A stretch of DNA of 64,000 nt from Candidatus Micrarchaeia archaeon (GTDB taxonomy: Archaea > Micrarchaeota > Micrarchaeia > CABMEP01), in assembly GCA_038886535.1 (NCBI GenBank), contig JAVZXS010000001.1:180636-244635 (forward strand). Direction: 5' to 3'. This document shows, in pieces, positions 6,074 through 63,819 of the stretch. Within the stretch, counting starts at the first letter, position 1, and every line of letters begins with the position of its first letter. Below the pieces are notes generated by a model. The model searched no databases and was not told where the DNA came from. It saw only the letters and a list, made by a program, of their open reading frames with translations. A program made the position numbers and the translations under genes.

Positions 6074-7930
6074 TTATTTTGTCAGTCTTCTTTTCTTTGC
6101 TTTTGATTCTACTTTGCGTTTTATCTTTCCAATTACAAAAAGAATTACAAATCCAACAAAAATAACCCCTACTAAAAACGTAACTATAGAAATTATCTGA
6201 TATGCAGATATTCTATTCGCTCTTTCTTCTAAGGTTTCTTCTGTTTTATTGCCGCCTATTATAAATTCATTAACAAGAGAATCATTTTCATTTTCCATGC
6301 ATATTTTTTCTGCATCTTTGTAATAATTTTCTAGATTTTCTGCGATTAATGCAATTCTTAATGCAGATAATTTATCTGTTTTGTTTATTTCTTTTGCATG
6401 GTTATTGAATATAACTGGCCAGATATAAGTATAATTTCTATGGATCAAAGAATTAAGGGTGGAATCAATTTTTTCCGGAATGTCATTGTTAGAATTTGAT
6501 GAACTAATCTCTTCAATATCAGAATAGGATTTTATATATGCAGCATCCACAAGTGCAGAGAGATACCTTTCTTCTTCAAAAGCAGCTTCAGCTGATTTCA
6601 TTCTGAATAACATGTCTGAATTGTTTGGGTCCACATCTAATCCTTTCAGAACTTCTTTAACATAATCTCTAAGATTTTCTTCTTTAAATCTATTCTGCAA
6701 ATCAGATTCAAATGTTTCGTTTTCAATTTTGTCAAGCATATGGTTTGCTGCAAGGCACCAGTACTTTGCATTAATTATATTGCTATATTTTGCTAACAAA
6801 GGAGAAATAAATTCATTCTTTTGTTTGCCAGTAGCAATATCGAATATTTCCTTCTCACTAATTGTTTCACTTAATTTAGTTTTTGCCCACATGTATCTAG
6901 TCTCAGCAGGACCTATAATTTGGAAGTTTTTATCGTTAATCTTTTTCTTGATTATGTTGTCCTTTTTCTCAAAAGTTTCTAAACACTCTTTTGTTTTTTT
7001 GTATTCTTCTATCATTCTTTCCTTGCTAAAAAGAGAGACCTCTTTATCTATGGAAAGCAGAAAAGCGATGTTTGCAGATGTGTAATATTGATTTGAATAG
7101 AATGCGTTTTTAGAGTTTTCAAGTCTAGATTGGAAGTTGTCTCTGTATTCGATTTGTGTTTCATTAATGTCTTTTTCTGCATCCAATATCATATTTTCGG
7201 TTACACTTTTTATCCAATCCAAGTAAATATGTGAGAAATTGACATAATTGAATTCATTAATTTTTTCAGGTGATAGCGATAGATTTTCAGAGTAGTTTAT
7301 AGTAGAAGTCAAAATAGTATATGCTTCATTTATATCATCTGCCTGAAGTATCGTGATATTGTAGTATCTCTTAAACATCAGAAGTTCAATCTTTTCGCTG
7401 TTTGTCATTTTTGGAAATATTATTCTTTTAAATCCAAGTTTGTACGCTGCTTCTGCTTTTAAAGGCAGTCCGCCAACACTTCCCACTCTCCCATTTGCAT
7501 CTATAGTTCCAGTCATAGTGGTATCGGATCTCAGGTTTTTATTCTCAAAGCCGCTTAATATCATTGCTGTAAAGAGTGCACCCGCGCTTGGTCCTTCGAT
7601 ATAACTTACTCCATTATTTGATACCTCTAAAATAACGTCGCATTCAGAAATATTAATCCCGTCTTTTTCAGCCATCTTTCTGGCAACACTGTTAGCAATT
7701 AGTATTGATTTTTGGGTTTCTTCTCCTATTATTGGATCAAGGGAATAATATATTTTTCCAGATTCAGAAGAAATGCTTGGTATGATTTTAATATTTATTT
7801 TTATCATTTGACTTGAATTTTCATTAATTACTGCAGGCGCATATATACTTCTTTCAACTTCTATGCATTTAGAGAAATTTAAGCCAATTATCAATAGAAA
7901 AATTAACGTTGTCAATATTTTTTCATCCAT
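6074..7930 (-). CDS. Secreted or membrane-anchored S16 (Lon-like) serine peptidase domain protein lacking an AAA+ module
   Basis: N-terminal signal peptide. GPSAGA (catalytic Ser) and KAEAAYK (catalytic Lys) match the Lon proteolytic domain. There is a C-terminal TM anchor and no Walker motifs. Confidence 0.6.
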   Translation of the reverse strand: MDEKILTTLIFLLIIGLNFSKCIEVERSIYAPAVINENSSQMIKINIKIIPSISSESGKIYYSLDPIIGEETQKSILIANSVARKMAEKDGINISECDVILEVSNNGVSYIEGPSAGALFTAMILSGFENKNLRSDTTMTGTIDANGRVGSVGGLPLKAEAAYKLGFKRIIFPKMTNSEKIELLMFKRYYNITILQADDINEAYTILTSTINYSENLSLSPEKINEFNYVNFSHIYLDWIKSVTENMILDAEKDINETQIEYRDNFQSRLENSKNAFYSNQYYTSANIAFLLSIDKEVSLFSKERMIEEYKKTKECLETFEKKDNIIKKKINDKNFQIIGPAETRYMWAKTKLSETISEKEIFDIATGKQKNEFISPLLAKYSNIINAKYWCLAANHMLDKIENETFESDLQNRFKEENLRDYVKEVLKGLDVDPNNSDMLFRMKSAEAAFEEERYLSALVDAAYIKSYSDIEEISSSNSNNDIPEKIDSTLNSLIHRNYTYIWPVIFNNHAKEINKTDKLSALRIALIAENLENYYKDAEKICMENENDSLVNEFIIGGNKTEETLEERANRISAYQIISIVTFLVGVIFVGFVILFVIGKIKRKVESKAKKRRLTK

Positions 7931-13113: not shown

Positions 13114-16100
13114 GTGGCTGGTTTAAATCTGAGAATATTTTTTATTTTTTTTATCGTTTTGTTCAATATAAATTATGGTTTATCTTATCTCAATAACTGT
13201 AGTAATTTAAATATTAATGGTGAAACTTATATCCTGACAACTAACGTTTCTTCAACAACTATCTGCTTTAACATATCAGCCAATAATATAACTCTTGATT
13301 GCAATGGGAATACGATTTATAGCTATAATAATGCAGTAGCTAATGCTTCAATAATTACAAATGCTGCGTTAACAGGTATTGTCATTAAAAATTGTAATTT
13401 TATTGGAAATGATTCATACATTCTTTTTTTCCCATATGGTAATTTAAATTCAAAACTTATTAACAATTCATTTAAAAACTGTTATTATTGTAGTTGGATA
13501 CAATCTGATAATAACATTTCTATAATTAACAATTCTTTTTATAATTCTAGAAATGCGATTCATTTTGTTGGAACTAGTGGTTTCAACATCTCTAATAACC
13601 TTTTTTCAAACATCAGCTCCAGATCTATTTCTGCTGGTGGGTTAGATTCTAATCCAAGTTTAGTTAAAGTAATCGAGAACAATTTCTTCCTCAATACTTA
13701 TAGAGGAATTTATAATGGTATGACTTTGACACATATCAATTCAAATGAATTCTATAATTGTGGAGAATATTGTATTTATTTAGCTTCTGCACAAAACAAT
13801 TCAATTTTTAATAACAATATAAGTAATTATTCAATATATGGCTTAATTTTGGATTCATCGTTAGGAACTAATATATCTACAAACATATTTAATTCAACTG
13901 TAGGTAGTGCTATAGTTTTAAGAAGTAGTGATGTAATTTCTGTTTTTAATAATACGATATATGGTCCTTTGATATTAGAGAGCTCTCGGAATGATACTAT
14001 ATTCAACAATACAATTTTGACTGCAGGAATAGCATTACACGCCTATTCTCCCTATTATGAAAACGAGAATAATCAAATATTTAACAATTCAATAGTTAGT
14101 ATTGATTCTTATGCTATTCGATTAGTTAGTTCTAAAAATAACTTAATCTATAATAATATACTGAAAGGATCTGTTCCAGTAGAAGTCGTTGACACTTTAT
14201 ATACTAATTATTGGAATACAACAATTAATTGTTCTGGCGCGAGAAATATAGTTGGCGGTCCGTGTATTGGAGGTAATTTTTATTCTAACCTGAATGAGAC
14301 AGGTTTTTCAGAAAACATTAATGTATGTTCACCACAGTCAAATAAAATATGTGGAAATTCATATACCATACAAACTAACAATATTGATTATGCACCAATA
14401 ACAAATCGTTTGTTAGCACCATCTTGTAGTTCACAATTAAATGAACCAAATACGATTTATATTATGTGGAGTTCTCAAGTTACACCTGGGACGTGTTATA
14501 CAATTACAGCAAATAACGTTACACTCGACTGTAAAGGATATACTATTACATATGCTACAGGATCTAATTATGCGTATGGAATATATTCTGGTGGCTATAA
14601 TAACTCTGTAATTAAAAACTGCAAACTTATTCAAAATACAGCTCCAAGAAATAATGCACATGGAATTTGGTTTGCAGGAAGTTCAAATAATAAAGTTGAA
14701 AATGTTTCTATAAATATTGTTGGAAATCAAAGCAACGGTATTTATTTAACTTATTCTTGGCCCAATCCATCTAATTACAATTTTATTAAAAACACAACTA
14801 TTACTATGTCAGGAGTGCAAGGTCATGGTATAGATATTTATGGATCTTATAATAACTTCTCAAATATTTCAATTGTAACAACTGGAATGTATGGAAATGG
14901 AATTAATTTCGATCCTTCTTCAGATTCAAATTACAACATATTTACAAACATGTCAGTAAAGGATACAGGTTCTTATTCCTTTGCAATTCAATTGCGTGGT
15001 AATGATAATAGATTCTATAATAATTTAATTAATAGTAGTTCTACTTCTCCAGTTTCAGTAACATCTGGTTCTAATTCATTTAATACAACGCTTACAATGG
15101 GAACAAATATAATTGGCGGTAATTATATTGCCGGTAATTTCTGGGCAACTCCTTCAGGAAACGGTTTCTCTGAAACATGTACAGACAATGATGGAAACGG
15201 GATCTGTGATGCAACTTATACTATCAATTCAGATAACATCGACTATCTCCCGCTTGCAGTTCCTCCAATTCAGTTAACAAGTTGCGGTACTCTTGATAAG
15301 ACAGGAAAAACGTACTTATTAATTCAAAACATTACTACCTCTAATGATTGTTTTATAATAAATAAAAGTTATATAACGCTAGATTGTCAGAATAATACTA
15401 TTACAGCAAATAGAGGTGTTTTGATTGGCTTTCCAGGACGGGAAAGTTCTTCAAATATAACCGTTAAGAATTGTATAATAAACAGTGCTTATGATGGAAT
15501 AGACTTAGGGGCTTGGAGTTATAATACTAATATTACTATTTTAGGAAATAAAATTATTAGTCAATATGCGAATGGTATCGCTTTTGGAACTGTAGCAGGT
15601 TCTAATATTAATATATCTAATAATATAATTTATTCCCCTAGATGGGGGATCTATATAGTCAGCGGTTCAGGTTATATAACAAACAATACAATTGTTCAAG
15701 TAGACTGCAATTATGGAGGATATCCTCCTTGTGGTGGTTTAATTTTATATGGTGGTTCAAATTTTAATATATTACATAATTTTATAAACTCAACAAACGC
15801 ACACGGTATTGTTTTTGCAGATTACTTAGGAACTACAGCAGATAACAACTTAGTTATCAATAATCTTATTTATACTAATTATTGTGGTTTTCGTTTTCAA
15901 CCTTATAGTAAATGTGGAGCAAGGAATAATATCATAGCTAATAGTACTATTATAGCAATTGGTACAAACAGCTGTGGAATATATTCAGACTGTCCAATAA
16001 ATACTACGTGGTCTAATATTACAATCAACTCTGAAGGAACAGATTTTATTTCATTATATTCAATAAATAATACTTATTTTAATGTAACATTCAATTCTTC

Positions 16101-19100
16101 TTTCTACCCAACTAAGGTAAGTTTTACTCATAATGGCAGCATTAAAATAAATTCAGCTGATGCAGTTCCTTCTTCAGGATACTACAATGTTTCCAAATAC
16201 CTTAACATCACAAACTCAACACCTGCATGGGTATACATTAATTTCACATACTCAAACGATACAATAGGAGAAAATGAAACAAAACTCAAACTCTATAGAT
16301 GGGATGGGTCTGCATGGAATGAAGTTCCAGGAAGCGGAGTAGATACTGATAATAAGATAGTTTATGGAAATATTACACAATTCAGCATATTTGCTCCACT
16401 TGCAGTTGCAGATGCGATTCCCCCATCAATTCAATTGATATCTCCTGAAAATGATACATATACAAACCAAAACAGTATGACCTTCATTTTCAATGCAACA
16501 GATGATCAGAGTTCTACATTAAACTGCAGCCTTTACATAAATAATGAAATTAACCAGACAAACGAAAGTTTTGTAAATGGTTCAGTTACTTCGTTCTCAT
16601 TGACAAATATTGCAGATGGATATTATACATGGTACGTTAATTGTTCTGACGCTTCTGGCAATAGCAATGTCTCAGAAACAAGAACATTTACAATTGACAC
16701 AATTCCTCCATCAGTCTCTATCACATCTCCATCTTCAAATTCATATCTTAATTCAAAGATAATAACAATAACTGGTACTTCATCTGATCTAAATTACAAT
16801 TTCACAAACATCTCAATCTGGCAGGGAAGCACACTAATTAATTCAACAATCACAACTAGTACTTCATGGTCAGTCCAGCTTGCAGCGCAGGATGACGGAG
16901 TATATAGCATAAGTGCTGTTGCATATGATCTTGCAGGTAATGAAAATTCAAGCAATATAACAGATATAACAATAGATACTACCATACCTCAGGTTACAAT
17001 TATTTCTCCATCGCAATCATCCCCGATTTATTTGAGGAGCAGCGTTCCAGTCCAACTTAAATTCAATTACAATGAAACCAATCCTGCAAACTATACAGCT
17101 CTACTAATAAACAGTTCAGGACAAAGAGTATCAAACATATCAGAGAGTTTAGCTATTAGTGGTGATGTGAATATTACGGCATCACTGTCAACTACTGGAC
17201 TGCCTAATGGAAACTATTCAATCAATGTTACAATTTTTGATAAAGTAGGACACACTGTAACTGTCTCAGAGATCAATAATGTAATTATAGATAATGAAAT
17301 ACCTGGTGTAATAATTAATTCGCCTTCATCTGGCCATTATATTATAGGAGACACAATAGTTTTGAATCTTACAATATTTGATGACAATCTCAATTACACT
17401 CAAATCACGATCTATAACGCATCAGAATCTATTCTAAATTACACCACTAATCAGTCTGGAACATTTACAATAAACTTCACTCTTCCAGATGATATATATA
17501 CAATAAATGTAACCTCCTTTGATCTGTCTGGAAACAATGCAACCGCAACTGTCACTGGTGTAGAATTAGATTCAACATCACCATTCTATCTAAATAACTG
17601 CTTGGACATAACAATGCCAGGAGAATACTATCTTGTAAATAATATTTATTCAACTAATGTCACTTGTATATTCATAGATGCAGATAACGTGACTGTTGAT
17701 GGTCAGGGATATGAAGTACGCAACCTTGGAAACCCAATTATTCCGGGAATATTTGTACAGGATAGGAAAAACATTACGATTCAAAACATAATAATCTCTC
17801 ATTATGATCCAGATATTCAAATGATTAATGTAACTGATGCAAAGATTTACAACGTAACACATAATGGAGGACAAATTGAAATTATATATACTGATGCAGA
17901 AATTAAGAATTCAAGATTTGAGAATAGCAGTTCAGAAGGTATGGTTGCAAATCTTTCAAACATTATCATAAATAATACAATTATCAAAAATAGCCAATCT
18001 GATACATTATATATATCATCTTCTAATGTAAGCATTTTAGGCTCACATATTCAGAACTCTAATGGAGTAAAAGGCATTTCCATTTCTGGACAAAACAGCA
18101 TAATATCAATAGCATCATCAAGTATTATTCTGCAAACAGCAGACAATGCAGATGTAATTGATGTTGATGTTTCATCAACAGATAACCTATATCTATCAAT
18201 TTCAGATTCAAACGTAAGCAACCAAAACAGTTTCATACATTTAAGAAATTCAGCTGGTTTTGAATCCAAGAATATTTCAATTAATGTTTTCAGAAACAAT
18301 ATTTTCAACTTCTCAAAAATTATATCTTCAGATTCACCAGTTAATGGATCAGGAAAGATCTTATTAACCAGTGATATTCATGGAAACTACTGGGGAAGAT
18401 CATCTTACCCATATGTGAATTTATCAGACTTCCAAAATGTTTCAGATGTCTCAGATGAGCTTCCTTATAAAGAAGCAGATGGATGGAATAAGGAAGCAAG
18501 ATTCAGATTAAATTCTTCAAGCTATAATTTTGCATCAAAAGATGGAAAGCTGTCAATTTTAATGCCATACAACCCATCCTCACCAAATGACAATCTTGTC
18601 TTAAGCAGGCTAGAAAATGAAGTCTTCGTAATAACAGATCTTCCTTTAATGCATTTAGCTGCTGAAAACTCAATAGTAAATGCAAGATTGCACTATTTAT
18701 TTGGAACTTACGAATCTGTGTATTTGCCAGTTGAAGAAAGAGAAGGCCTACTTTTAGTAACTCCGTTACCTATTGAAATCAAGGTAAATCTTTCAGATGA
18801 TTTCAACACAAGTGAAGCAGATGATATTTCCTCAATTGAATTCGATGAAAATGGATTTATAAAAGATCTCGGTGGAAAATTCGTTTTTGACTCAAATGAA
18901 GAATCTTTCAAGCTAAAGCTTAACATCATTAATGGTTCAATTGATTTCTTAATAGGAAAGAAGGAATCAGATCTTATACTTTTTGACAATGTAAGCCCAA
19001 CAGTCTCTCTACGTCAATCCGGTTCTATAGTTATTGCAGATTATTTAGATCCATTACAACAAGTGATTCAGAGAAATGATGGAAGAGGCAATGCTTATAA

Positions 19101-21270
19101 GGAAGTGAATTCAGATCAAATTATTCCATTGTTCCTGCCAAATGGGGCAATGGTCAGTAATGCAACGATGACACTTTCACCTCTCTCAGGAACTCCTTCA
19201 TTCAACGTTTCAATCTACTTAAGAAACAACGTGACTTCATTATCTTCAGCTGAAAGATATTACTTTAATGAAATCTCTTCTCTCTCTTCACCTATTACGT
19301 TAGACTTAACTTCAAGTATGCAATCAGCTCTTGGAAATTGCAGCCAATTGCATAATGGTTCATATTGTTTATTCTATATCAGTATCAATGGTTTGAATGA
19401 TGGAGAATTCAATATTTCAGAATTCAATTTCAATTATTCATATTCATCTGGAATCAAGTTGCCAGATGTAAATACCAGTGGTACAATTACATCTCTTGTG
19501 GAAATACCAAAGCATGAACCAGATGTTTTCTATCTAAGCGATGGAGGAACTGATGTCCTAGTTATTTCATTGCCTTTCAAGTCATACATAAAATCAGCAC
19601 AGATAACATTAAGTGGAGAAGAGTGGGAAGGCTCTTATCCATCTAATGTCAATATGTGGATAGGAAACGGATCAACATCACCCAGAACGCCATTTGTTAC
19701 ATATTCTGGTGAATTCAATACTTCCATACAAATAATTGCACCATTTGTTTCTGCTTTAAGGAACTATACATCAAGCGCAGATGCTGACCATAAAGGTAAT
19801 GTCCTAATACCATTAACACTTAATTCATCAACAAAGGGTAAGGTCAGGATCAGTTCTATAAGTGTTGATTATGATTTAAGAAATGCATACGATTTAAACT
19901 CTCCATCGTATATCTATGGATTCAATGATGGAAGTGAAGTTAAAACAGTAACATTTACAAACTCCTCACCATCTACAATCCTCTATATAGATATTCCAAA
20001 GTATTCCAGAGTTTCAAACATCTCAATCATATCAAGCCCTTCAGAGAACATTACATTCAATATTGACTTCCTAAACGATGGAGTTATAGAGATTGAGAAT
20101 AGTACAATGATAAGGCAACTCAATCTTACTCAATACCTACAAAATTGTTCTCCATACAAATTTAGAATTCCATTTGGAAGATTGTGCAAGGTTGCAATTA
20201 ACATAACAGCCAATCTTGATGCGTATCCAAATGTTTATTCAGATTTCGAAGTTACAAGTTCATTTATCTCAATGCCTTGGCGATATGCCGGATCTGATTC
20301 AGAAATAATAAGAGAAAGCGAAAAGAGGTTTGACTTTCTTACTATCCCAACTGGAGCTGCCAAGCGTGCAAGGTCTCTATCATTAGAGCACCGTTCAATC
20401 TACTCATTACAATCAGGTGATATTGTTATCGGCTATGGATTAGATATGGCTGGAAATAGAGGAAGTGGCAATTATACATTTATAGTTGCCGGCCCACCCA
20501 CTCCACCAGCAATAACTCCACCATTAACAAAGATTCCATTATCTGGATGGATGAATTGTACTAATTCATTAGCATATGTAATAACAGAACCAGGTGCTTC
20601 AGTTACTGTTTTGTTTAGGTCAAGCGGCATGTTTGTTACAGGAGGAACAGCGGATTCAAATGGAAGATTTGAGTTTATGCCTTTATTGAGTGGAGACTAT
20701 ATTATCCGTGTATCTAAATCAGGATTTGAAGATAATCAAATTACACTTACTGCAAATATTTGTATTGTTGAGACGCAAATTTCTACAAAGAAGTCACTCA
20801 TCTGTTCTCAAGATAAGTGCAGTATTAATCTTTATCTTGCAACAAACAAGATTTCAGACTTCCAGTTCAGGCTTACAGACTTTATACCGTCGCAAGTAAT
20901 AAAAACAGTTAATTCGATAGTTGACAGATTCGGAAAGGTGTTCTATAGTTATAGCTATACAGATTCTTTAATTTCTATTCCATCCACTCAGAAGATAACG
21001 AGTACATTCTCAGTTATATTAGATACGGTTTTGACCGCTATTCCAAACTACATTGAAAATGAAAATAAATTCATATATTCAATAACTAATACTGCTGCAG
21101 ACGTTGAACTTGATGAGATTATAATACCATTGCCTGAAAATGCAAAAGGAAAGGAAATTGCATCAATCGAGTACATTGATGCAGACGGTTCAAAGATAAA
21201 TATAACGGATTACACAGTGGAATATGACAGGATTATTATCCACCAGTCAGTGATTATTAAGAAACAGTAA
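13114..21270 (+). CDS. Giant (2,718 aa) secreted surface protein built from tandem right-handed parallel beta-helix modules, Ig-like domains and a carboxypeptidase-regulatory-like domain, with very many N-x-S/T sequons
   Basis: Signal peptide MAGLNLRIFFIFFIVLFNINYG. PbH1-type repeats such as NNSIFNNNISN and NNTIYG recur. Four modules open with C..C...(I/V)TLDC. Three Ig-like repeats follow (DTIPPSVSITSPSSNSY, DTTIPQVTIISPSQSS, DNEIPGVIINSPSSGHY). A PPTPPAITPP linker precedes the C-terminal domains. The uninterrupted 8.1-kb ORF in AT-rich DNA is itself strong evidence of coding. Confidence 0.8.
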   Translation: MAGLNLRIFFIFFIVLFNINYGLSYLNNCSNLNINGETYILTTNVSSTTICFNISANNITLDCNGNTIYSYNNAVANASIITNAALTGIVIKNCNFIGNDSYILFFPYGNLNSKLINNSFKNCYYCSWIQSDNNISIINNSFYNSRNAIHFVGTSGFNISNNLFSNISSRSISAGGLDSNPSLVKVIENNFFLNTYRGIYNGMTLTHINSNEFYNCGEYCIYLASAQNNSIFNNNISNYSIYGLILDSSLGTNISTNIFNSTVGSAIVLRSSDVISVFNNTIYGPLILESSRNDTIFNNTILTAGIALHAYSPYYENENNQIFNNSIVSIDSYAIRLVSSKNNLIYNNILKGSVPVEVVDTLYTNYWNTTINCSGARNIVGGPCIGGNFYSNLNETGFSENINVCSPQSNKICGNSYTIQTNNIDYAPITNRLLAPSCSSQLNEPNTIYIMWSSQVTPGTCYTITANNVTLDCKGYTITYATGSNYAYGIYSGGYNNSVIKNCKLIQNTAPRNNAHGIWFAGSSNNKVENVSINIVGNQSNGIYLTYSWPNPSNYNFIKNTTITMSGVQGHGIDIYGSYNNFSNISIVTTGMYGNGINFDPSSDSNYNIFTNMSVKDTGSYSFAIQLRGNDNRFYNNLINSSSTSPVSVTSGSNSFNTTLTMGTNIIGGNYIAGNFWATPSGNGFSETCTDNDGNGICDATYTINSDNIDYLPLAVPPIQLTSCGTLDKTGKTYLLIQNITTSNDCFIINKSYITLDCQNNTITANRGVLIGFPGRESSSNITVKNCIINSAYDGIDLGAWSYNTNITILGNKIISQYANGIAFGTVAGSNINISNNIIYSPRWGIYIVSGSGYITNNTIVQVDCNYGGYPPCGGLILYGGSNFNILHNFINSTNAHGIVFADYLGTTADNNLVINNLIYTNYCGFRFQPYSKCGARNNIIANSTIIAIGTNSCGIYSDCPINTTWSNITINSEGTDFISLYSINNTYFNVTFNSSFYPTKVSFTHNGSIKINSADAVPSSGYYNVSKYLNITNSTPAWVYINFTYSNDTIGENETKLKLYRWDGSAWNEVPGSGVDTDNKIVYGNITQFSIFAPLAVADAIPPSIQLISPENDTYTNQNSMTFIFNATDDQSSTLNCSLYINNEINQTNESFVNGSVTSFSLTNIADGYYTWYVNCSDASGNSNVSETRTFTIDTIPPSVSITSPSSNSYLNSKIITITGTSSDLNYNFTNISIWQGSTLINSTITTSTSWSVQLAAQDDGVYSISAVAYDLAGNENSSNITDITIDTTIPQVTIISPSQSSPIYLRSSVPVQLKFNYNETNPANYTALLINSSGQRVSNISESLAISGDVNITASLSTTGLPNGNYSINVTIFDKVGHTVTVSEINNVIIDNEIPGVIINSPSSGHYIIGDTIVLNLTIFDDNLNYTQITIYNASESILNYTTNQSGTFTINFTLPDDIYTINVTSFDLSGNNATATVTGVELDSTSPFYLNNCLDITMPGEYYLVNNIYSTNVTCIFIDADNVTVDGQGYEVRNLGNPIIPGIFVQDRKNITIQNIIISHYDPDIQMINVTDAKIYNVTHNGGQIEIIYTDAEIKNSRFENSSSEGMVANLSNIIINNTIIKNSQSDTLYISSSNVSILGSHIQNSNGVKGISISGQNSIISIASSSIILQTADNADVIDVDVSSTDNLYLSISDSNVSNQNSFIHLRNSAGFESKNISINVFRNNIFNFSKIISSDSPVNGSGKILLTSDIHGNYWGRSSYPYVNLSDFQNVSDVSDELPYKEADGWNKEARFRLNSSSYNFASKDGKLSILMPYNPSSPNDNLVLSRLENEVFVITDLPLMHLAAENSIVNARLHYLFGTYESVYLPVEEREGLLLVTPLPIEIKVNLSDDFNTSEADDISSIEFDENGFIKDLGGKFVFDSNEESFKLKLNIINGSIDFLIGKKESDLILFDNVSPTVSLRQSGSIVIADYLDPLQQVIQRNDGRGNAYKEVNSDQIIPLFLPNGAMVSNATMTLSPLSGTPSFNVSIYLRNNVTSLSSAERYYFNEISSLSSPITLDLTSSMQSALGNCSQLHNGSYCLFYISINGLNDGEFNISEFNFNYSYSSGIKLPDVNTSGTITSLVEIPKHEPDVFYLSDGGTDVLVISLPFKSYIKSAQITLSGEEWEGSYPSNVNMWIGNGSTSPRTPFVTYSGEFNTSIQIIAPFVSALRNYTSSADADHKGNVLIPLTLNSSTKGKVRISSISVDYDLRNAYDLNSPSYIYGFNDGSEVKTVTFTNSSPSTILYIDIPKYSRVSNISIISSPSENITFNIDFLNDGVIEIENSTMIRQLNLTQYLQNCSPYKFRIPFGRLCKVAINITANLDAYPNVYSDFEVTSSFISMPWRYAGSDSEIIRESEKRFDFLTIPTGAAKRARSLSLEHRSIYSLQSGDIVIGYGLDMAGNRGSGNYTFIVAGPPTPPAITPPLTKIPLSGWMNCTNSLAYVITEPGASVTVLFRSSGMFVTGGTADSNGRFEFMPLLSGDYIIRVSKSGFEDNQITLTANICIVETQISTKKSLICSQDKCSINLYLATNKISDFQFRLTDFIPSQVIKTVNSIVDRFGKVFYSYSYTDSLISIPSTQKITSTFSVILDTVLTAIPNYIENENKFIYSITNTAADVELDEIIIPLPENAKGKEIASIEYIDADGSKINITDYTVEYDRIIIHQSVIIKKQ

Positions 21271-36058: not shown

Positions 36059-36079
36059 GTAAGAATCTAAAAATATAAT

Positions 36080-36370
36080 GGAGCGGCAGACTATAGTCGA
36101 TCTTTTGTATATGCAGCATTCGACTAAGCGGCTCAAAGGCCTTGCATCTCATCGTGTGATGTGAGTCGTTTCATTCAACTGTATCGTCTCCTTTCGTCAT
36201 TCTCATCCTTTACAGTTGATTCGTTTCTAGTCTCACATCATGCCCTTAAAGCATTTTTTCACTCGATGGATCGAACTTCCTCAGAAATAACAGAGTTTTT
36301 CGAACTCTTTAGCACATCTGCTATTTGAGATCGATAACTGTTATTTCCGTTAGCTGCAGTCCACCACTCC
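36080..36370 (-). ncRNA. rnpB: Candidate RNase P RNA
   Basis: On the minus strand there is a 14-bp terminal helix (GGAGUGGUGGACUG / CAGUCUGCCGCUCC). A 10-bp P3-like hairpin (GAAAUAACAG...CUGUUAUUUC) is immediately followed by GAGGAAGUUCGAUCC, close to the universal P4 5' strand AGGAAAGUCCGG. GUGAAAAAAUGC..UAAGGGCAU resembles GGUGAAA..GGUAAG of CR-II/III. CCGCUUAGUCGAAU can pair with the P4 5' strand. GC is raised relative to the flanks. The overlapping minus ORF 36259..36444 is judged spurious. Confidence 0.55.
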
Positions 36371-36459
36371 AAAGTATTTACTAAATCAGAGTATATAAAT
36401 CTAACTTTTAATCTAAAAATTGTAAGCAAAGATAAATAGAACAAATTAAAAAGAAATCG

Positions 36460-36651
36460 TTAATCTTTTGTACCTAGTGCTTTGGAGATTATATCTAAGA
36501 TACAGAATCCAGTAAATGCACCCTGTATCATCATCAAAGCCACAAAAGCAGCGAGTGCAATACCTATGGTTACATTACCACTATAAGCCAAAAACGCCCC
36601 TATAAGAATAAGTAATCCTCTTCCAAGGTCCCTAATTTGTGCCATTTTCAT
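36460..36651 (-). CDS. Small DUF2892-like (YgaP-type) membrane protein
   Basis: 63 aa, two TM helices, conserved GAFTGFC. Confidence 0.45.
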   Translation of the reverse strand: MKMAQIRDLGRGLLILIGAFLAYSGNVTIGIALAAFVALMMIQGAFTGFCILDIISKALGTKD

Positions 36652-39011: not shown

Positions 39012-41054
39012 ATGATTCAACCAGATCTTTCTCCAATAACTCAAAAATTCGAAGAATTCTTTACAGACAAATATAGTAAGGAGTTTCAGATCTTGAAGAA
39101 TCTTTATCCGGAGAAAAGAAGTTTTTATTTTTCATATAAAGAATTGCACAAATATGACCATGAATTCGCAGAGAAATTAATTGACAATCCAGATACATAT
39201 TTAAAGGCAGCAGAATTAGCTCTCATTTCTATGGCTGGAGAAGAAAAGAAAAACTTTGAACCTCATGCGAGAGTTGAAGAAGTTGAGACAGCTGAAAAAA
39301 CAGTTCTAATTCAAGACATAGGATCAGAACATATTCATAAATTGATAAGTGTAACAGGTGTGGTAACAAAACGTGCAGAAATAAGACCAAAAGTGAATGT
39401 TGCAATTTATAATTGTACAAACTGTGGAAATACTGAGAAGGTTGTAATGGAGAAAGGAGTATATATTCCAGATACATGTAGCAACTGTAGAAAAAGAACT
39501 CTTGAACTTGATGAAAAAGCCTCAAAATTTATGAATATTCAGCGTGCAGAAATACAAGAACTTCTTGAAAGAGTAAGGAGCGGTTCTCCAGCAAGCCATA
39601 TCGAGCTTTTCTTAGATGATGATCTTTGTAATACAATAATCCCTGGGGATACAATTGAAGTTGTAGGAATTGTAAGATTAAGGCACGTAGGTAAGGCAAA
39701 AGATCCTATCTATTCAAAGTATATAGATGTAGTTTCAATAAGAAATACTCAAAGAGAATTTGAAGAAGTTGAATTGACAAAAGAAGATATTAAAAAAATA
39801 CAGGAATTTGCAAGGCAACCTAATGTATTTGAGATAATAACTAACTCAATTGCTCCTTCAATTTATGGTCATAGAGAGATGAAGCAAGCAATTGCACTTC
39901 AATTATTTGGAGGGAATCCAGATAAAGTTCTTCCAGAAGGTGGAAGAATAAGAAGTGACATCCATATATTATTAATAGGAGATCCTGGTGCTGCAAAGAC
40001 AAGGATGCTTCAATATGTGACTTCATTGGCACCTAAGAGCATTTATGTAAGTGGTAAGTCGGTATCAGGGGTAGGTCTTACTGCGAGTGCAGAGAAAGAC
40101 GATTTAGGAGAGGGCTGGACGCTCAAGGCAGGAGCATTAGTCCTTGCATCAGGAGGTCTTGCAGCTGTCGATGAGTTTGATAAAATAGACGATACAGAAA
40201 GAGCAGCTCTCCATGAAGTAATGGAGTCTGGAACCGTTTCAATAGCAAAAGCAGGAATTGTTGCTAAGTTCAAGGCAAAAACATCAATTCTTGCAGCTGC
40301 AAATCCTAAATTCGGAAGATTTGATCCTAATCAGCTTATTGCAATTCAATTCGATATTCCACCAACTCTTCAAAGTAGATTTGATTTAATATTTCCAATT
40401 AGAGATGTAATAGATGAGAATTCAGATAGAAAATTAGCAAGATACCTTTTAGAAACACACAAAAATGCAGCAGAGAATATAATTCCAGAGTCTAAAGAAG
40501 AAAAAGTTGATACTGATTTCTTGAGGAAGTATATTGCTTACGCACGGAAAAACATCAAGCCTAAACTATCACCAGAAGCTCAGAATAGGATCGAGTCATT
40601 TTATGTTCAATTAAGAGAGATGGGTAAAAGACAGGGTGCAGTTCCAATTACTCCGCGTCAAATTGAAGGTATAATTCGTTTAAGCGAGGCAAGTGCAAAG
40701 TCAAGGCTGTCTGAAGTTGTTGAGCTTAGAGACGCAGAGCTTGCAATTAGCTTAATGGAATATGTACTAAAAGAGATTGCTTTGGATAGAAGCACAGGTG
40801 CAATCAACATAGATATAATTGCAACAGGTCAACCTAAATCAAAACAGCAACAGTACTATGATTTATATGGTGCTATGAGGGAATTAAGCAAGCAATTTGA
40901 TCCAATACCTAAAGAAAAAATATACGAAGAAGGAATTAACAACCTGAAGCTTGAAGAAAGAACAATAAGAATGATTTTGGATGAAATGCTTAAGAAAGGA
41001 GAGATCTTTGAACCTAAGCCAGGCCACTTTAAGATAGTGCACACGTATGAATAA
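39012..41054 (+). CDS. mcm: MCM replicative helicase
   Basis: C4 zinc finger CTNCGN..CSNCRK, Walker A GDPGAAKT, Walker B VDEFDKI, arginine finger SRFDL, C-terminal wH. Confidence 0.9.
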   Translation: MIQPDLSPITQKFEEFFTDKYSKEFQILKNLYPEKRSFYFSYKELHKYDHEFAEKLIDNPDTYLKAAELALISMAGEEKKNFEPHARVEEVETAEKTVLIQDIGSEHIHKLISVTGVVTKRAEIRPKVNVAIYNCTNCGNTEKVVMEKGVYIPDTCSNCRKRTLELDEKASKFMNIQRAEIQELLERVRSGSPASHIELFLDDDLCNTIIPGDTIEVVGIVRLRHVGKAKDPIYSKYIDVVSIRNTQREFEEVELTKEDIKKIQEFARQPNVFEIITNSIAPSIYGHREMKQAIALQLFGGNPDKVLPEGGRIRSDIHILLIGDPGAAKTRMLQYVTSLAPKSIYVSGKSVSGVGLTASAEKDDLGEGWTLKAGALVLASGGLAAVDEFDKIDDTERAALHEVMESGTVSIAKAGIVAKFKAKTSILAAANPKFGRFDPNQLIAIQFDIPPTLQSRFDLIFPIRDVIDENSDRKLARYLLETHKNAAENIIPESKEEKVDTDFLRKYIAYARKNIKPKLSPEAQNRIESFYVQLREMGKRQGAVPITPRQIEGIIRLSEASAKSRLSEVVELRDAELAISLMEYVLKEIALDRSTGAINIDIIATGQPKSKQQQYYDLYGAMRELSKQFDPIPKEKIYEEGINNLKLEERTIRMILDEMLKKGEIFEPKPGHFKIVHTYE

Positions 41055-59640: not shown

Positions 59641-60021
59641 TTATTGTTCTTTCTTCCATAATCCATGGATGTTACAGTATTCTCTTGCATTTATTTTCTT
59701 TGCATTTATTTTGAATTCAGCCTCAGGAGTTTGACCTGGTTTTAGGTAATTTCTATATATTTTATCATCTGCAAGCACTTCTATAAATTCAATGTAATGT
59801 TCGGGTTCCATTGGATGTGGAATAGAACCTATTTTAACTTTAAAGCCACCTCTAATCTTTTCGATTACAGGTACATGTTTTTCATACCCTTGATCTTCTG
59901 TTTTTTCTTCTAGTTTTTCCATATTCTTATTGCAACAGACCAAAGTTCCAACTCCTGCATGAGCTATTTCAACTATATTTCCACATACACTGCATTTATA
60001 TATCTGATTAAGTTCTGTCAT
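59641..60021 (-). CDS. dfx: Desulfoferrodoxin (2Fe superoxide reductase)
   Basis: N-terminal desulforedoxin CSVCGN..LVCC. SOR centre motifs KHVPVIE and EYCNIHGLW. Confidence 0.85.
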
Positions 60022-60047
60022 ATTATCACCATTTTAAATATTTATTT

Positions 60048-60650
60048 TCAATATTCTTCACACTTCAATTGATAGAAAGCTTTAGGATGGTCACAAGATG
60101 GACATTTTTCAGGAGGGAATTTTCCAAAGTGTACATAACCACACTCTCTACATACCCACCAAACTTTATCGTTCTTATTAAAGAATGTACCTTTTTCAAG
60201 CTGTTCAAGTATCTTTTTATATCGTTCTTCATGGTGCTCTTCAGCTTTAGCGATGGCCCTTAATCTCTGTGCTATTTCTTTTAACCCTTCCTTTTCAGCT
60301 ATGTCAGCGAATTCAGGATACATTTTTGCATATTCATAGTTTTCTCCTGCGATTGCAGCTTTAAGATTATCGATAGTATTTCCGAATACGGTTGGAGCGG
60401 ATGCCTCAACTTTTATTTCATTGTACTTCTCTATCTTTTCTCCTCTCTCAGCAGCTTTTTTCTTCAGTTCATTTATCAGTTTAAATAGCCAACTTGCATG
60501 TTCTCTCTCATTATCTGCAGTTATAAGGAATATTTCTGCAATTTGCTCATATCCTTCATTTCTTGCCACTTTCGCATAGAAAGTATATCTATTTCTTGCT
60601 TGACTTTCACCTATAAATGCCTTCGCTAAATTTTCAATCGTCTTCTCCAT
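60048..60650 (-). CDS. rbr: Rubrerythrin (likely start at MEKTIENL)
   Basis: Di-iron motifs ENLAKAFIGESQARNRY and ..NEREHA.. plus a C-terminal rubredoxin domain CRECGY..CPSC. Confidence 0.85.
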   Translation of the reverse strand: MEKTIENLAKAFIGESQARNRYTFYAKVARNEGYEQIAEIFLITADNEREHASWLFKLINELKKKAAERGEKIEKYNEIKVEASAPTVFGNTIDNLKAAIAGENYEYAKMYPEFADIAEKEGLKEIAQRLRAIAKAEEHHEERYKKILEQLEKGTFFNKNDKVWWVCRECGYVHFGKFPPEKCPSCDHPKAFYQLKCEEY

Positions 60651-60827
60651 TCCAACACCTCCAAAATTAGACATATATATTTGATTGAAAATGTTCATAA
60701 ATATATCTATAACTTAATTTGTGATGTTCCTGATGTAAAAGATAAATTAAGCGAGGTATAGTAATATTTATAAATCTAATATAATATTATATATTTAACG
60801 ATTTTTAGATCGTTTCCCGGCAAAGCG

Positions 60828-60976: not shown

Positions 60977-61957
60977 ATGGGAAAAGTTATTAAGCCAAGA
61001 GCAGGTTCTCTTGCATTTAGACCAAGAAAACGTTCGAAAGACATTACTCCAAGAATGCGAACTTGGAGAATCACCGATAAAGTGCAGTTACTGGGATATC
61101 CAGTCTATAAAGTAGGAATGAAGCAAGCAGGAATAATAGATGATTCTAGATCTCCAACTAAGGGAATGGAATTAACAGTACCAGTTACAATTTTAGAAGC
61201 ACCAAAGATAACTATTTATGGAGCAAGGCTTTATCAGAAAACTCTCACTGGAACAAAGTGTTTGGGTGATGCTCTTTCAATCAATACAAAAGTAGCATCA
61301 ATGCTAGGTATGTCAAAGAAAGATAAGAAAAGAAAGGATATAAAATGGCTAGAAGAAAAAATATCTTCATTTAATGATGAAGATAAAAAAGATCTTTATA
61401 TTTCAGTTCTTGCCGTAACTAATACAAAGGAAGCAGGAATTCCAAAGAAGACTGGAGATACAGTTGAAATAGCAATAGGTGGAAATGATATTAAATCTCA
61501 ATTGGAGTATGTCAAATCCATACTTGGAAAGGATATAACTCCAAATGAAGTATTTGAAGAAGGAGAATATGTTGATGCAATAGCAGTAACAAGAGGACAT
61601 GGCTGGCAGGGAGTTATTAGAAGATTCGGTGTTCACAAACAAAGACCTAAGAATACTGGAAGAGTAAGACACAGAGGTACATTAGGTCCATGGCATCCAG
61701 CATATGTTATGTATACTGTTCCACAAGCAGGTCAACATGGATTCCATAGAAGAACTCAATATAATAATAGAATACTTTTGATTGGAGATGATCCATCTAA
61801 AGTTAATATTCCTGGTGGTTACCCACACTATGGAGAAGTCAAATCTTCGTTTATATGTGTTAAGGGTTCAGTTCCAGGAACTCAAAAGAGATTTGTATTC
61901 CTTAGAAAATCCATAAGGAATACTTCTGTGCAGAAACCACAGATTTTATGGTTCTGA
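60977..61957 (+). CDS. rpl3: Ribosomal protein L3
   Basis: MGKVIKPRAGSLAFRPRKRS... is archaeal uL3. Confidence 0.9.
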   Translation: MGKVIKPRAGSLAFRPRKRSKDITPRMRTWRITDKVQLLGYPVYKVGMKQAGIIDDSRSPTKGMELTVPVTILEAPKITIYGARLYQKTLTGTKCLGDALSINTKVASMLGMSKKDKKRKDIKWLEEKISSFNDEDKKDLYISVLAVTNTKEAGIPKKTGDTVEIAIGGNDIKSQLEYVKSILGKDITPNEVFEEGEYVDAIAVTRGHGWQGVIRRFGVHKQRPKNTGRVRHRGTLGPWHPAYVMYTVPQAGQHGFHRRTQYNNRILLIGDDPSKVNIPGGYPHYGEVKSSFICVKGSVPGTQKRFVFLRKSIRNTSVQKPQILWF

Positions 61958-61983
61958 AATTCAAAAGATAATAGGTTGATCAT

Positions 61984-62763
61984 ATGGTAAGTATTTCATT
62001 ATATTCTCAAAATGGTTCACCAACTGGAAAAATAGAGCTTCCAGAGATATTTAGAACAGAGATAAGAGAAGATCTTATCAGAAGAGCAGTTTTATCTGAG
62101 GAATCAGAAAAACTACAACCAAAAGGAGCTTTTCCAAGAGCAGGTTTGCAAACAACTGCAAGGTATATTGGTAGGAAGGATGCTTATCACTCACTCAAAA
62201 ACAGAGGAATTGCAAAGCTTCCAAGAGAACTCTATCCAAAAGGAAGAATCGGAAGAGTAAGGGTAGTTCCATGGGCAGTAAAAGGTAGGAGAGCTCATCC
62301 TCCAAAAGTAGAAAAAGTTCTTATTGAGAGGATAAATAAAAGAGAAAAAAAGAAAGCACTTCATTCTGCAATTGCAGCTACCGCTAATAAGGAAATGGTT
62401 GGCAAGAAACACATATTACCAAAGATAGACATCCCTATTGTTCTTGATGATTCGTGCGAATCTTTATCAAAAACAAAAGAAGTTGTTTCTTTATTTGAAC
62501 ATCTTGATCTTATGAAGGATATTGAAAGAGCTGAACAAAGAACTAAAAGAAATAATGGAAGAAAAGGTGGGGTAAAAACACCTAAGTCAATTCTTTTAAT
62601 CGCTGCGAAGGATTCTAAGCTTCTTAAAGCAGCAAAGAACCTTCCAGGTGTTACAGTTACAACGATAGATAATCTTAAAGTTTCAGATCTTGCACCTGGT
62701 GGAGTACCAGGCAGATTAACAGTTTGGACAAAATCTGCAATCGAAAATTTAAGTAAGGTTTAA
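61984..62763 (+). CDS. rpl4: Ribosomal protein L4
   Basis: uL4 sequence in operon order after L3. Confidence 0.85.
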   Translation: MVSISLYSQNGSPTGKIELPEIFRTEIREDLIRRAVLSEESEKLQPKGAFPRAGLQTTARYIGRKDAYHSLKNRGIAKLPRELYPKGRIGRVRVVPWAVKGRRAHPPKVEKVLIERINKREKKKALHSAIAATANKEMVGKKHILPKIDIPIVLDDSCESLSKTKEVVSLFEHLDLMKDIERAEQRTKRNNGRKGGVKTPKSILLIAAKDSKLLKAAKNLPGVTVTTIDNLKVSDLAPGGVPGRLTVWTKSAIENLSKV

Positions 62764-62786
62764 CTATATATTGAAATGTATAATAA

Positions 62787-63044
62787 GTGGGTGAAATTAT
62801 GATTATATATCCCGTAACAACTGAAAAGGCAATAAATCAAATTTCAAAGAACAATACTTTAGTATTTAATGTTGATCCTAAACAAACTAAGAGATCAATA
62901 AAGGAGTATATCGAAAAAGAATATGGCGTTAAGGTTGCTTCAGTAAATGTACTAAATAATTTCTCAAATAAAAAAGTAGCATACGTTAAGCTTAAAAAGG
63001 AATATTCAGCAATGGATCTTGCGTCAAAACTTAAGATATTGTAA
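62787..63044 (+). CDS. rpl23: Ribosomal protein L23
   Basis: uL23 sequence in operon order. Confidence 0.85.
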   Translation: MGEIMIIYPVTTEKAINQISKNNTLVFNVDPKQTKRSIKEYIEKEYGVKVASVNVLNNFSNKKVAYVKLKKEYSAMDLASKLKIL

Positions 63045-63075
63045 ATTATATTGATAGTTTAATGATTAGATAGGT

Positions 63076-63819
63076 GTGTTTATGGGTAAAATGTTAAATC
63101 AACAAAGAAGAGGAAAGGGAAGTCCAGCATTCTCTGCTCCATCGCATAAATTTAATGCAAAAGTTTCATTTAGATCTTACGATGAAAAAGAAAAGAATTC
63201 TGTAGTTAAAGGAAAAGTTATAGAATTCATCAATAATCCTGCCCACAGTGGTTTAATAATGAATGTAAAGACTGAAGATGGCCAGATAGTTTCACTTCTT
63301 GCCCCAGAAGGAATTGCAATAGGAGATGAGATAGAATTTGGGGCTAATGCAGGAATTAAATTAGGAAATGTTCTTCCTCTTGCAAAGATTCCAGATGGAA
63401 TGTATGTTTATAATATAGAGTTAGTTCCAGGAGACGGTGGAAAGCTAATAAGAGCAGCTGGAACATCAGGAACAGTAATATCTCATACAGATAAAGAGGT
63501 TTATGTTGCATTACCATCAAAGAAGGTTAAAATATTCAATGCTAATTGCAGAGCACAGATCGGATTAATTTCAATGGGTGGAAGATTAATGAGACCTGTT
63601 TTCAAGGCAGGAAAGAAATATCACATGGTGGCTTCAACAGCAAGATATTGGCCAAAAGTCAGAGGAGTTGCAATGTCTGTATATGACCATCCATTCGGTG
63701 GAAAGCAGCACCACCCAGGTCGTTCAACGATTGTTGCAAGGAACGCACCACCGGGAAGAAAGGTTGGTCTTTTGGCAGCAGCTTCTGTTGGAAGAGGAAA
63801 GAAAAGAAAGAAAGTTTAA
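63076..63819 (+). CDS. rpl2: Ribosomal protein L2
   Basis: uL2 motifs (GGRLMRPVFKAGKKYH, HPFGGKQHHPGR). Confidence 0.9.
   Translation: MFMGKMLNQQRRGKGSPAFSAPSHKFNAKVSFRSYDEKEKNSVVKGKVIEFINNPAHSGLIMNVKTEDGQIVSLLAPEGIAIGDEIEFGANAGIKLGNVLPLAKIPDGMYVYNIELVPGDGGKLIRAAGTSGTVISHTDKEVYVALPSKKVKIFNANCRAQIGLISMGGRLMRPVFKAGKKYHMVASTARYWPKVRGVAMSVYDHPFGGKQHHPGRSTIVARNAPPGRKVGLLAAASVGRGKKRKKV

Follow-up and report, generated by a model that had tools for sequence, protein, structure and literature searches.

A Micrarchaeia locus narrowly below the Rfam cut-off very probably encodes a type-M-like RNase P RNA with an expanded P3 hairpin

Results

Features of the locus

Judged from its sequence, the minus strand at positions 36081-36369 of the 64-kb window (the whole stretch of DNA that was analysed) very probably holds rnpB (RPR), the gene for the catalytic subunit of the ribonucleoprotein (RNP) form of RNase P, in a member of the Micrarchaeia (DPANN). 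Homology, secondary structure, covariation and a conserved promoter position support this reading. The features of the locus are as follows, RNA position 1 being window position 36369.

36259-36444, minus strand: open reading frame of 61 codons with a TTG start, which runs across the promoter and into the 5' third of the RNA
36392-36399, minus strand: TATA box TTTATATA, 23-30 nt upstream of the RNA 5' end, a putative archaeal promoter
36081-36369, minus strand: rnpB/RPR, 289 nt as matched by Rfam, identified by a full-length RF00373 match, orthologues and covariation
36358-36369, minus strand: P1 5' strand, RNA 1-12, pairing with RNA 278-289 (36081-36092) in 12 of 12 positions
36353-36357, minus strand: P2, GCAGC at RNA 13-17, pairing with GCUGC at RNA 253-257 (36113-36117)
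36282-36349, minus strand: P3, an expanded, irregular 68-nt hairpin, RNA 21-88, with a 56-nt insertion relative to the Rfam consensus
36269-36282, minus strand: P4 5' strand and CR-I, GAGGAAGUUCGAUC, RNA 88-101, pairing with 36095-36102 (RNA 268-275)
36240-36254, minus strand: P9 hairpin, RNA 116-130, 100% paired, with two compensatory pairs
36221-36228, minus strand: CR-II, AGAAACGA, RNA 142-149, the T-loop recognition module of the S domain
36175-36219, minus strand: P12, RNA 151-195, a 9-bp stem with a GA-rich distal module
36166-36174, minus strand: CR-III, AUGAAACGA, RNA 196-204, invariant, doubling as a scan anchor
36130-36141, minus strand: P15 mini-hairpin GGC-CUUUGA-GCC, RNA 229-240
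36093-36129, minus strand: J15/2 (GCUUAGUCGAAU), P2 3' strand and CR-V (ACAAAAGAUCGACUAU), which holds the P4 3' strand, RNA 241-277
36069-36073, minus strand: T5 run, 8 nt past the RNA 3' end, a putative archaeal terminator read from the sequence

At its ends the mature RNA may extend 1-2 nt beyond the Rfam match (36079/80 to 36370/71). The original prediction had placed an RNase P RNA on the minus strand at 36080-36370, nearly the exact interval matched by the Rfam model. The raised GC content that had drawn attention to the region is evident, at 0.42 in the RNA as compared with 0.19-0.28 in the flanks and 0.32 in the window. The whole RNA (289 nt, minus strand) folds at -87.4 kcal/mol (z = -5.0), and none of 200 shuffled sequences is as good.

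A full-length match below the gathering cut-off

The search of the locus with Rfam models, proposed at the outset as a check, supports the assignment. In an E-value-threshold search, RF00373 aligns over its full length (model positions 1-288) at 80.7 bits, with E = 9.5e-23 in a 551-nt search and 1.1e-20 in the whole 64-kb window. This is the best non-tRNA hit of the whole window, and the RF00373 search returned no other RNase P candidate in these 64 kb. The score lies 3.3 bits below the curated gathering cut-off of 84 bits, an operational annotation threshold rather than a biological criterion, and for this reason a gathering-threshold Rfam scan of the whole window reports only four tRNAs and not the RNase P RNA. 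The original prediction was to be given up if no Rfam hit exceeded the threshold and a better rnpB existed elsewhere in the genome: the first is literally what we observe (80.7 versus 84 bits), and the second is not seen within the window. Genuine archaeal RNAs have been reported to score 53.6-228.6 bits with RF00373 and randomised genomes at most 14.3 bits, under an older Infernal version (PMC3579882). The size of the P3 insertion and the low G+C content likely lie behind the narrow miss.

Two other matches were rejected. A Pistol ribozyme match (14.2 bits, E = 5.5) is attributable to chance. At 6740-6849 on the plus strand, the yeast H/ACA snoRNA family snR82 matches at 26.5 bits versus a cut-off of 60 (E = 0.086); a 618-aa open reading frame occupies the opposite strand, and chance is the most likely explanation of the match.

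Orthologues in related genomes

The MetRS encoded 1 kb from rnpB shares 97% identity with a protein from a Candidatus Micrarchaeia MAG, and its next matches come from Micrarchaeota and other DPANN. The three loci at 97% MetRS identity (L001-L003) keep the order MetRS, tRNA-Lys, 63-aa membrane protein, gap and 347-aa protein; the RNA is present in the gap at 81.1 bits, left uncalled by the MAG annotators. Where MetRS is 75% identical (L004), the RNA directly follows tRNA-Lys and scores 88.2 bits, above the cut-off. At 66-68% MetRS identity (L005-L007) synteny is gone, and rnpB lies on another contig of that genome (L028).

With RF00373, the orthologues L004, L012 and L028 score 88-90 bits, and 17 relatives besides L004 score 89-116 bits. 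A pattern scan with three conserved motifs, CR-III among its anchors, detects the RNA in 50 species-representative genomes (about 42 labelled Micrarchaeota), with one locus per genome; all 18 scan loci tested give full-length RF00373 matches, at 78-116 bits. Scores below 84 bits are confined to the AT-rich subclade of the window (80.7 in the window, 81.1 in L001 and 78.1 in L049). Because the relatives score 78-116 bits, the locus belongs to a family that Rfam recognises, within a lineage whose scores fall just short of the threshold. The gene is thus a further, sub-threshold member of a known family, functionally an ordinary and expected housekeeping gene. The literature found gives no account of an RNase P RNA from Micrarchaeota or DPANN.

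Several side observations concern these genomes. The gene between tRNA-Lys and rnpB in the window (36460-36651, minus strand) encodes a 63-aa YgaP-like transmembrane protein that is kept in L001-L003 and missing at this position in L004. MCM of L004 (6392-9826) has 1144 aa and carries an intein (Intein_splicing and LAGLIDADG endonuclease domains), and MCM of the window (39012-41054) has 680 aa and no intein. Near another Micrarchaeota rnpB, a tRNA match extends over 116 nt (L010, 3677-3792, plus strand), presumably an intron-containing gene. Micrarchaeota-type RNase P RNAs also occur in L030 (contig JARVJS010000049.1, the same as L003), L017, L036 and L055, the last two more divergent, whose bins are labelled 'Nitrososphaeria archaeon', 'bacterium' and 'uncultured Methanosarcinales'; these MAGs are likely mis-binned or mislabelled.

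Conserved regions and covariation of the core helices

The conserved regions CR-I to CR-V occur in canonical order (GAGGAAGUUC, AGAAACGA, AUGAAACGA, GCAAG...CGCUUAGUCGAAUGC and ACAAAAGAUCGACUAU) and match the upper-case Rfam consensus. In CR-V, ACAAAAG replaces the ACAGAAG of the consensus, a change shared by at least nine related species. The motifs GAGGAA, AGAAACGA, AUGAAACGA, GCAAG, CGCUUAGUCGAAUGC and ACA(G/A)AAG are invariant or nearly so, an invariance that is not fully independent since two of these single-stranded motifs served to find the sequences. CR-II, which matches the upper-case Rfam consensus, is unchanged in 34 of 34 aligned RNAs. The invariance of CGCUUAGUCGAAUGC, which also matches the Rfam consensus, is only partly independent because the species-genome pattern required it exactly; it is unchanged also in the metagenome-scan loci, whose pattern did not include it. 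The original prediction had assigned a GUGAAA..UAAGG element (RNA 108-126) to CR-II/III, and this part of it proved wrong: the element is made up of P7, the linker from there to P9, and the P9 loop.

P1 stacks on the 5-bp P2. Within the clade of the window, 100% of P1 cells are paired and two pairs show compensatory change. With two further pairs outside the matched interval, 36370/36080 (G-C) and 36371/36079 (U-A), its 12 bp become the 14-bp terminal helix originally described. P2 is invariant in the clade, and over 35 RNAs its pairs take the types GC/AU, CG/UA and GC/AU, in a set selected for this pairing and hence not independent. P4, the pseudoknot of the catalytic core, is formed by RNA 93-101 with 268-275; it comprises G94-C274, U95-A273 and C97-G272 through C101-G268 and leaves U96 bulged, as expected for the conserved U. 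The near match to the universal P4 strand noted earlier, GAGGAAGUUCG at RNA 88-98, is indeed the P4 5' strand. Over 35 RNAs at fixed offsets, 280 of 280 P4 pairs are standard, three to five pair types occur at three of the eight positions and one or two at the others; three P4 pairs are compensatory within the clade. In the same tally, P5 (RNA 102-105 with 222-225) is paired in 139 of 140 instances and P15 in 105 of 105. P7 is formed by RNA 108-110 with 214-216, and P10/11 by RNA 131-138 with 205-212. The P12 stem shows compensatory change in six of nine pairs, and AUGAC...GGAGA is nearly invariant.

Covariation was assessed in two ways, with MAFFT alignments of the subsets that could be aligned and, free of any fitting, with fixed offsets from GAGGAA and CUA, both invariant motifs. 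In the MAFFT alignment of 34 RNAs, the P1/P2 5' strand of the window clade was about four columns off, and that alignment was left out of the pair counts; P1 was excluded from the fixed-offset tallies since the length of the P1-P2 junction varies between clades. For the window clade, represented by eight distinct RNAs, standard pairs account for 97.4% of cells and 20 of 63 pairs are compensatory, located in P1, P3, P4, P7, P9, P10/11 and P12. Sliding the structure by 1-3 columns leaves one to seven compensatory pairs, and none of 500 column shuffles reaches the observed values. RNAalifold recovered these helices in an independent set of 22 short-P3 Micrarchaeota RNAs, where 36 of 61 pairs are compensatory. 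Covariation thus maintains a two-domain fold, with a C domain of P1-P5 and P15 and an S domain of P7-P12. The check for covariation in relatives proposed with the original prediction therefore came out in its favour, every core helix being supported, the P4 pseudoknot included.

These data bear on whether the locus is a decaying, non-functional rnpB copy, with RNase P activity supplied by another RNA copy or a protein-only enzyme elsewhere in the genome. A reading as degeneration could draw on the sub-threshold Rfam score, the size of the P3 insertion and the absence of P8 and P16-17, and the window represents only 64 kb of the genome. Yet no conserved region is damaged, P4 pairs without exception in 35 genomes, and the promoter is conserved. 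Since the helices are maintained by compensatory substitutions, the fold is under selection. Furthermore, other Micrarchaeota RNAs with this reduced architecture score 95-116 bits, the pattern scan found a single locus per genome, and the protein-only enzyme HARP has not been found in DPANN (PMC6380272). We consider decay very improbable and take the locus to be a probable working rnpB.

Putative promoter and terminator, and overlapping reading frames

A TATA-like box lies at the same distance from the gene in nearly all 34 related genomes, GC-rich ones included, and T-runs are located 3' of the gene in many relatives. The 61-codon reading frame starts with its TTG upstream of the TATA box.

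Could the locus instead encode a small protein, its RNA similarity being incidental? Two open reading frames do exist, one of 61 aa (36259-36444) and one of 55 aa (36161-36328). There is no Pfam match, and the TTG start upstream of the TATA box argues against the longer frame, which neither L004 nor L012 conserves in frame, start or length. No gene is called over the RNA gap in the three closest MAGs, and the substitutions are compensatory pair by pair rather than codon by codon. We therefore give a protein-coding origin almost no credence, and the 61-codon frame is considered spurious, as had been suspected originally.

A type-M-like architecture

In the Rfam alignment the P8 columns are deleted, and a 5-nt linker, AAAAA (36255-36259), joins P7 to P9. 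L15, P16, P17 and P6 are also missing; P15 has 6 nt versus 39 in the consensus, and J15/2 follows directly. Type M RNase P RNAs are defined by the lack of P8 and the lack of L15, P16, P17 and P6 (PMC3001054). As read from the sequence, both defining features are present and the architecture is type-M-like. Most of the Micrarchaeota RNAs recovered measure only 235-245 nt and have a 5-bp P3. The recovery pattern demanded a short P15, so the share of mini-P15 among the recovered RNAs need not match its share in the phylum. A well-aligned P8 hairpin accompanies the mini-P15 in L009 (6343-6621, minus strand), which hints at losses of P8 within the phylum. L034 and L045 share the mini-P15 and have extra inserts or a P8 hairpin between P7 and P9.

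In the literature found, type M is reported only from Archaeoglobus and Methanococcales (PMC3579882). With the type M RNAs of Methanocaldococcus jannaschii, Methanococcus maripaludis and Archaeoglobus fulgidus, the window RNA has in common the universal core of P1-P5, the bulged U of P4 and CR-I to CR-V. The lack of P8, a short-loop P15 without L15, P16, P17 and P6 and a length of about 235-290 nt are likewise shared, and GA-rich K-turn-like motifs in P12 are a candidate further similarity. The known hosts of type M are euryarchaea, whereas the RNA described here comes from DPANN Micrarchaeia, with a P3 expansion of 40-56 nt in the subclade and a P15 of 3 bp and 6 nt. The type A RNAs of Pyrococcus furiosus and Methanothermobacter belong to the same family model and have the same catalytic core and S-domain modules. 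In contrast to the window RNA, they carry P8 in a P7-P10 cruciform and the P15-L15-P16-P17-P6 element that binds the tRNA 3'-RCCA. The P8-bearing variant of type M in Archaeoglobus profundus, A. veneficus and Ferroglobus placidus (PMC3579882) parallels the variation in P8 seen with L009, although the window RNA itself is without P8. Type T RNAs of Pyrobaculum and other Thermoproteaceae (RF02357) are reduced archaeal RNase P RNAs as well, but they lack most of the specificity domain; the window RNA keeps P7, P9, P10/11, P12, CR-II and CR-III in a covarying S domain.

Inspection of the distal part of P12 points to candidate tandem G.A pairs (G166.A183/A167.G182 and G172.A181/A173.G180) and a GAAA loop. 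P12 of euryarchaeal RNAs contains a double K-turn that binds two copies of L7Ae (PMC5499556). By inspection only, the distal module resembles this element and is a candidate for a similar one.

An expanded P3 hairpin

P3 measures 40-71 nt in the subclade of the window versus about 15-20 nt in most Micrarchaeota. The long P3-like hairpin of the original prediction is borne out by its stability relative to shuffled sequences (68 nt at RNA 21-88, z = -6.7). In a set of 11 distinct variants, six of them from a metagenome scan, every P3 folds alone into a single unbranched rod (z from -2.1 to -6.7), and at most four of 200 shuffles are as stable. The rod often ends in a GAAA (GNRA) cap and has a purine-rich asymmetric internal loop on its 3' side; the sequences are widely divergent. 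The basal pairs covary in the window clade. RNAalifold on a MAFFT alignment gave a weak consensus, with five of 15 pairs compensatory and a covariation term of +0.45. Because the alignment of the inner part is too poor for a firm consensus, the P3 claim rests on the separate folding of each variant, and the inner fold as modelled is provisional. We regard P3 as a structurally maintained, subclade-specific expansion segment.

The P3 of eukaryotic RNases P and MRP is a helix-loop-helix. The expanded P3 is superficially similar, which raises the question of whether the locus encodes a structured RNA that descends from RNase P RNA as a paralogue and serves another role, as RNase MRP does in eukaryotes. 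No second RNase P-like locus is found in any of the related genome stretches, and the tRNA-elbow modules CR-II and CR-III are invariant. RNase MRP is not known in Archaea, which also counts against a paralogue. We judge it very improbable and retain the assignment as RNase P RNA.

One broader scenario is speculative, and we hold it to be rather unlikely as a whole. In it, the type-M-like form of about 235-245 nt would be standard across much of Micrarchaeota, independently of euryarchaeal type M. The P3 rod would have been newly gained as a tertiary strut or protein-binding platform that compensates for the lost helices, functionally analogous to the eukaryotic helix-loop-helix P3.

Proposed function and protein partners

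Transcription, protein partners, catalysis, protein dependence and the role of the P3 expansion are only what we infer for this RNA. The gene would be transcribed from its own TATA-box promoter, with transcription ending at the T-run. In the catalytic domain, made up of P1-P2-P3, the P4 pseudoknot with its bulged U, P5 and P15, the P4 core is predicted to position metal ions. In the specificity domain (P7, P9, P10/11 and P12), CR-II and CR-III would read the tRNA elbow. Together with POP5-RPP30, RPP21-RPP29 and L7Ae, the RNA may remove the 5' leader of pre-tRNA by Mg2+-dependent hydrolysis. If Methanocaldococcus RNase P is a guide, the RNA would bind its substrate poorly without protein, on which it would depend strongly. 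Such type-M-like behaviour is expected because L15, which pairs with the tRNA 3'-RCCA, and P8, part of the T-loop-binding cruciform, are missing. Type M RNAs are inactive in trans without POP5-RPP30 and RPP21-RPP29 (PMC3001054).

RNP-type RNase P is near-universal in Archaea, and HARP has not been found in DPANN (PMC6380272); an rnpB is therefore expected in this genome. Pfam scans found no gene for an RNase P protein subunit among the 33 open reading frames of the window that were scanned, which has little bearing on the rest of the genome. A conserved ribosomal protein cluster begins at the end of the window (60977-63819, plus strand), with L4 and L2 identified by Pfam among the frames scanned there; other frames precede L4 and separate it from L2. 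In many archaea the Rpp29 gene is located further along this cluster, which here would be beyond the end of the window.

Implications for annotation and other observations

In this lineage rnpB scores 3-6 bits under the Rfam cut-off, and automated pipelines will report the RNase P RNA as missing. In a reduced DPANN genome the missing annotation could pass for gene loss. A true loss of RNase P RNA is found in Nanoarchaeum. The gap would close if these sequences entered the seed alignment or if Micrarchaeota had a model of their own. The data extend type-M-like reduced RNase P RNA as a widespread form outside Euryarchaeota, with P8 and P3 variable within one phylum, and provide extra natural examples of RNase P RNAs that shed or gain peripheral helices while proteins take over. 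They leave the understanding of the RNase P mechanism unchanged, and the architecture is of modest evolutionary interest.

Two regions of the window away from rnpB were also recorded. A giant open reading frame of 2718 aa occupies 13114-21270 on the plus strand. Its product combines NosD/right-handed beta-helix repeats with several bacterial Ig-like domains and one carboxypeptidase-regulatory-like domain, and probably acts at the cell surface or in adhesion, as very large proteins of this kind, common in DPANN episymbionts, do. At 59641-60698 on the minus strand, a desulfoferrodoxin gene adjoins one for rubrerythrin, an oxidative-stress pair of the anaerobe type.
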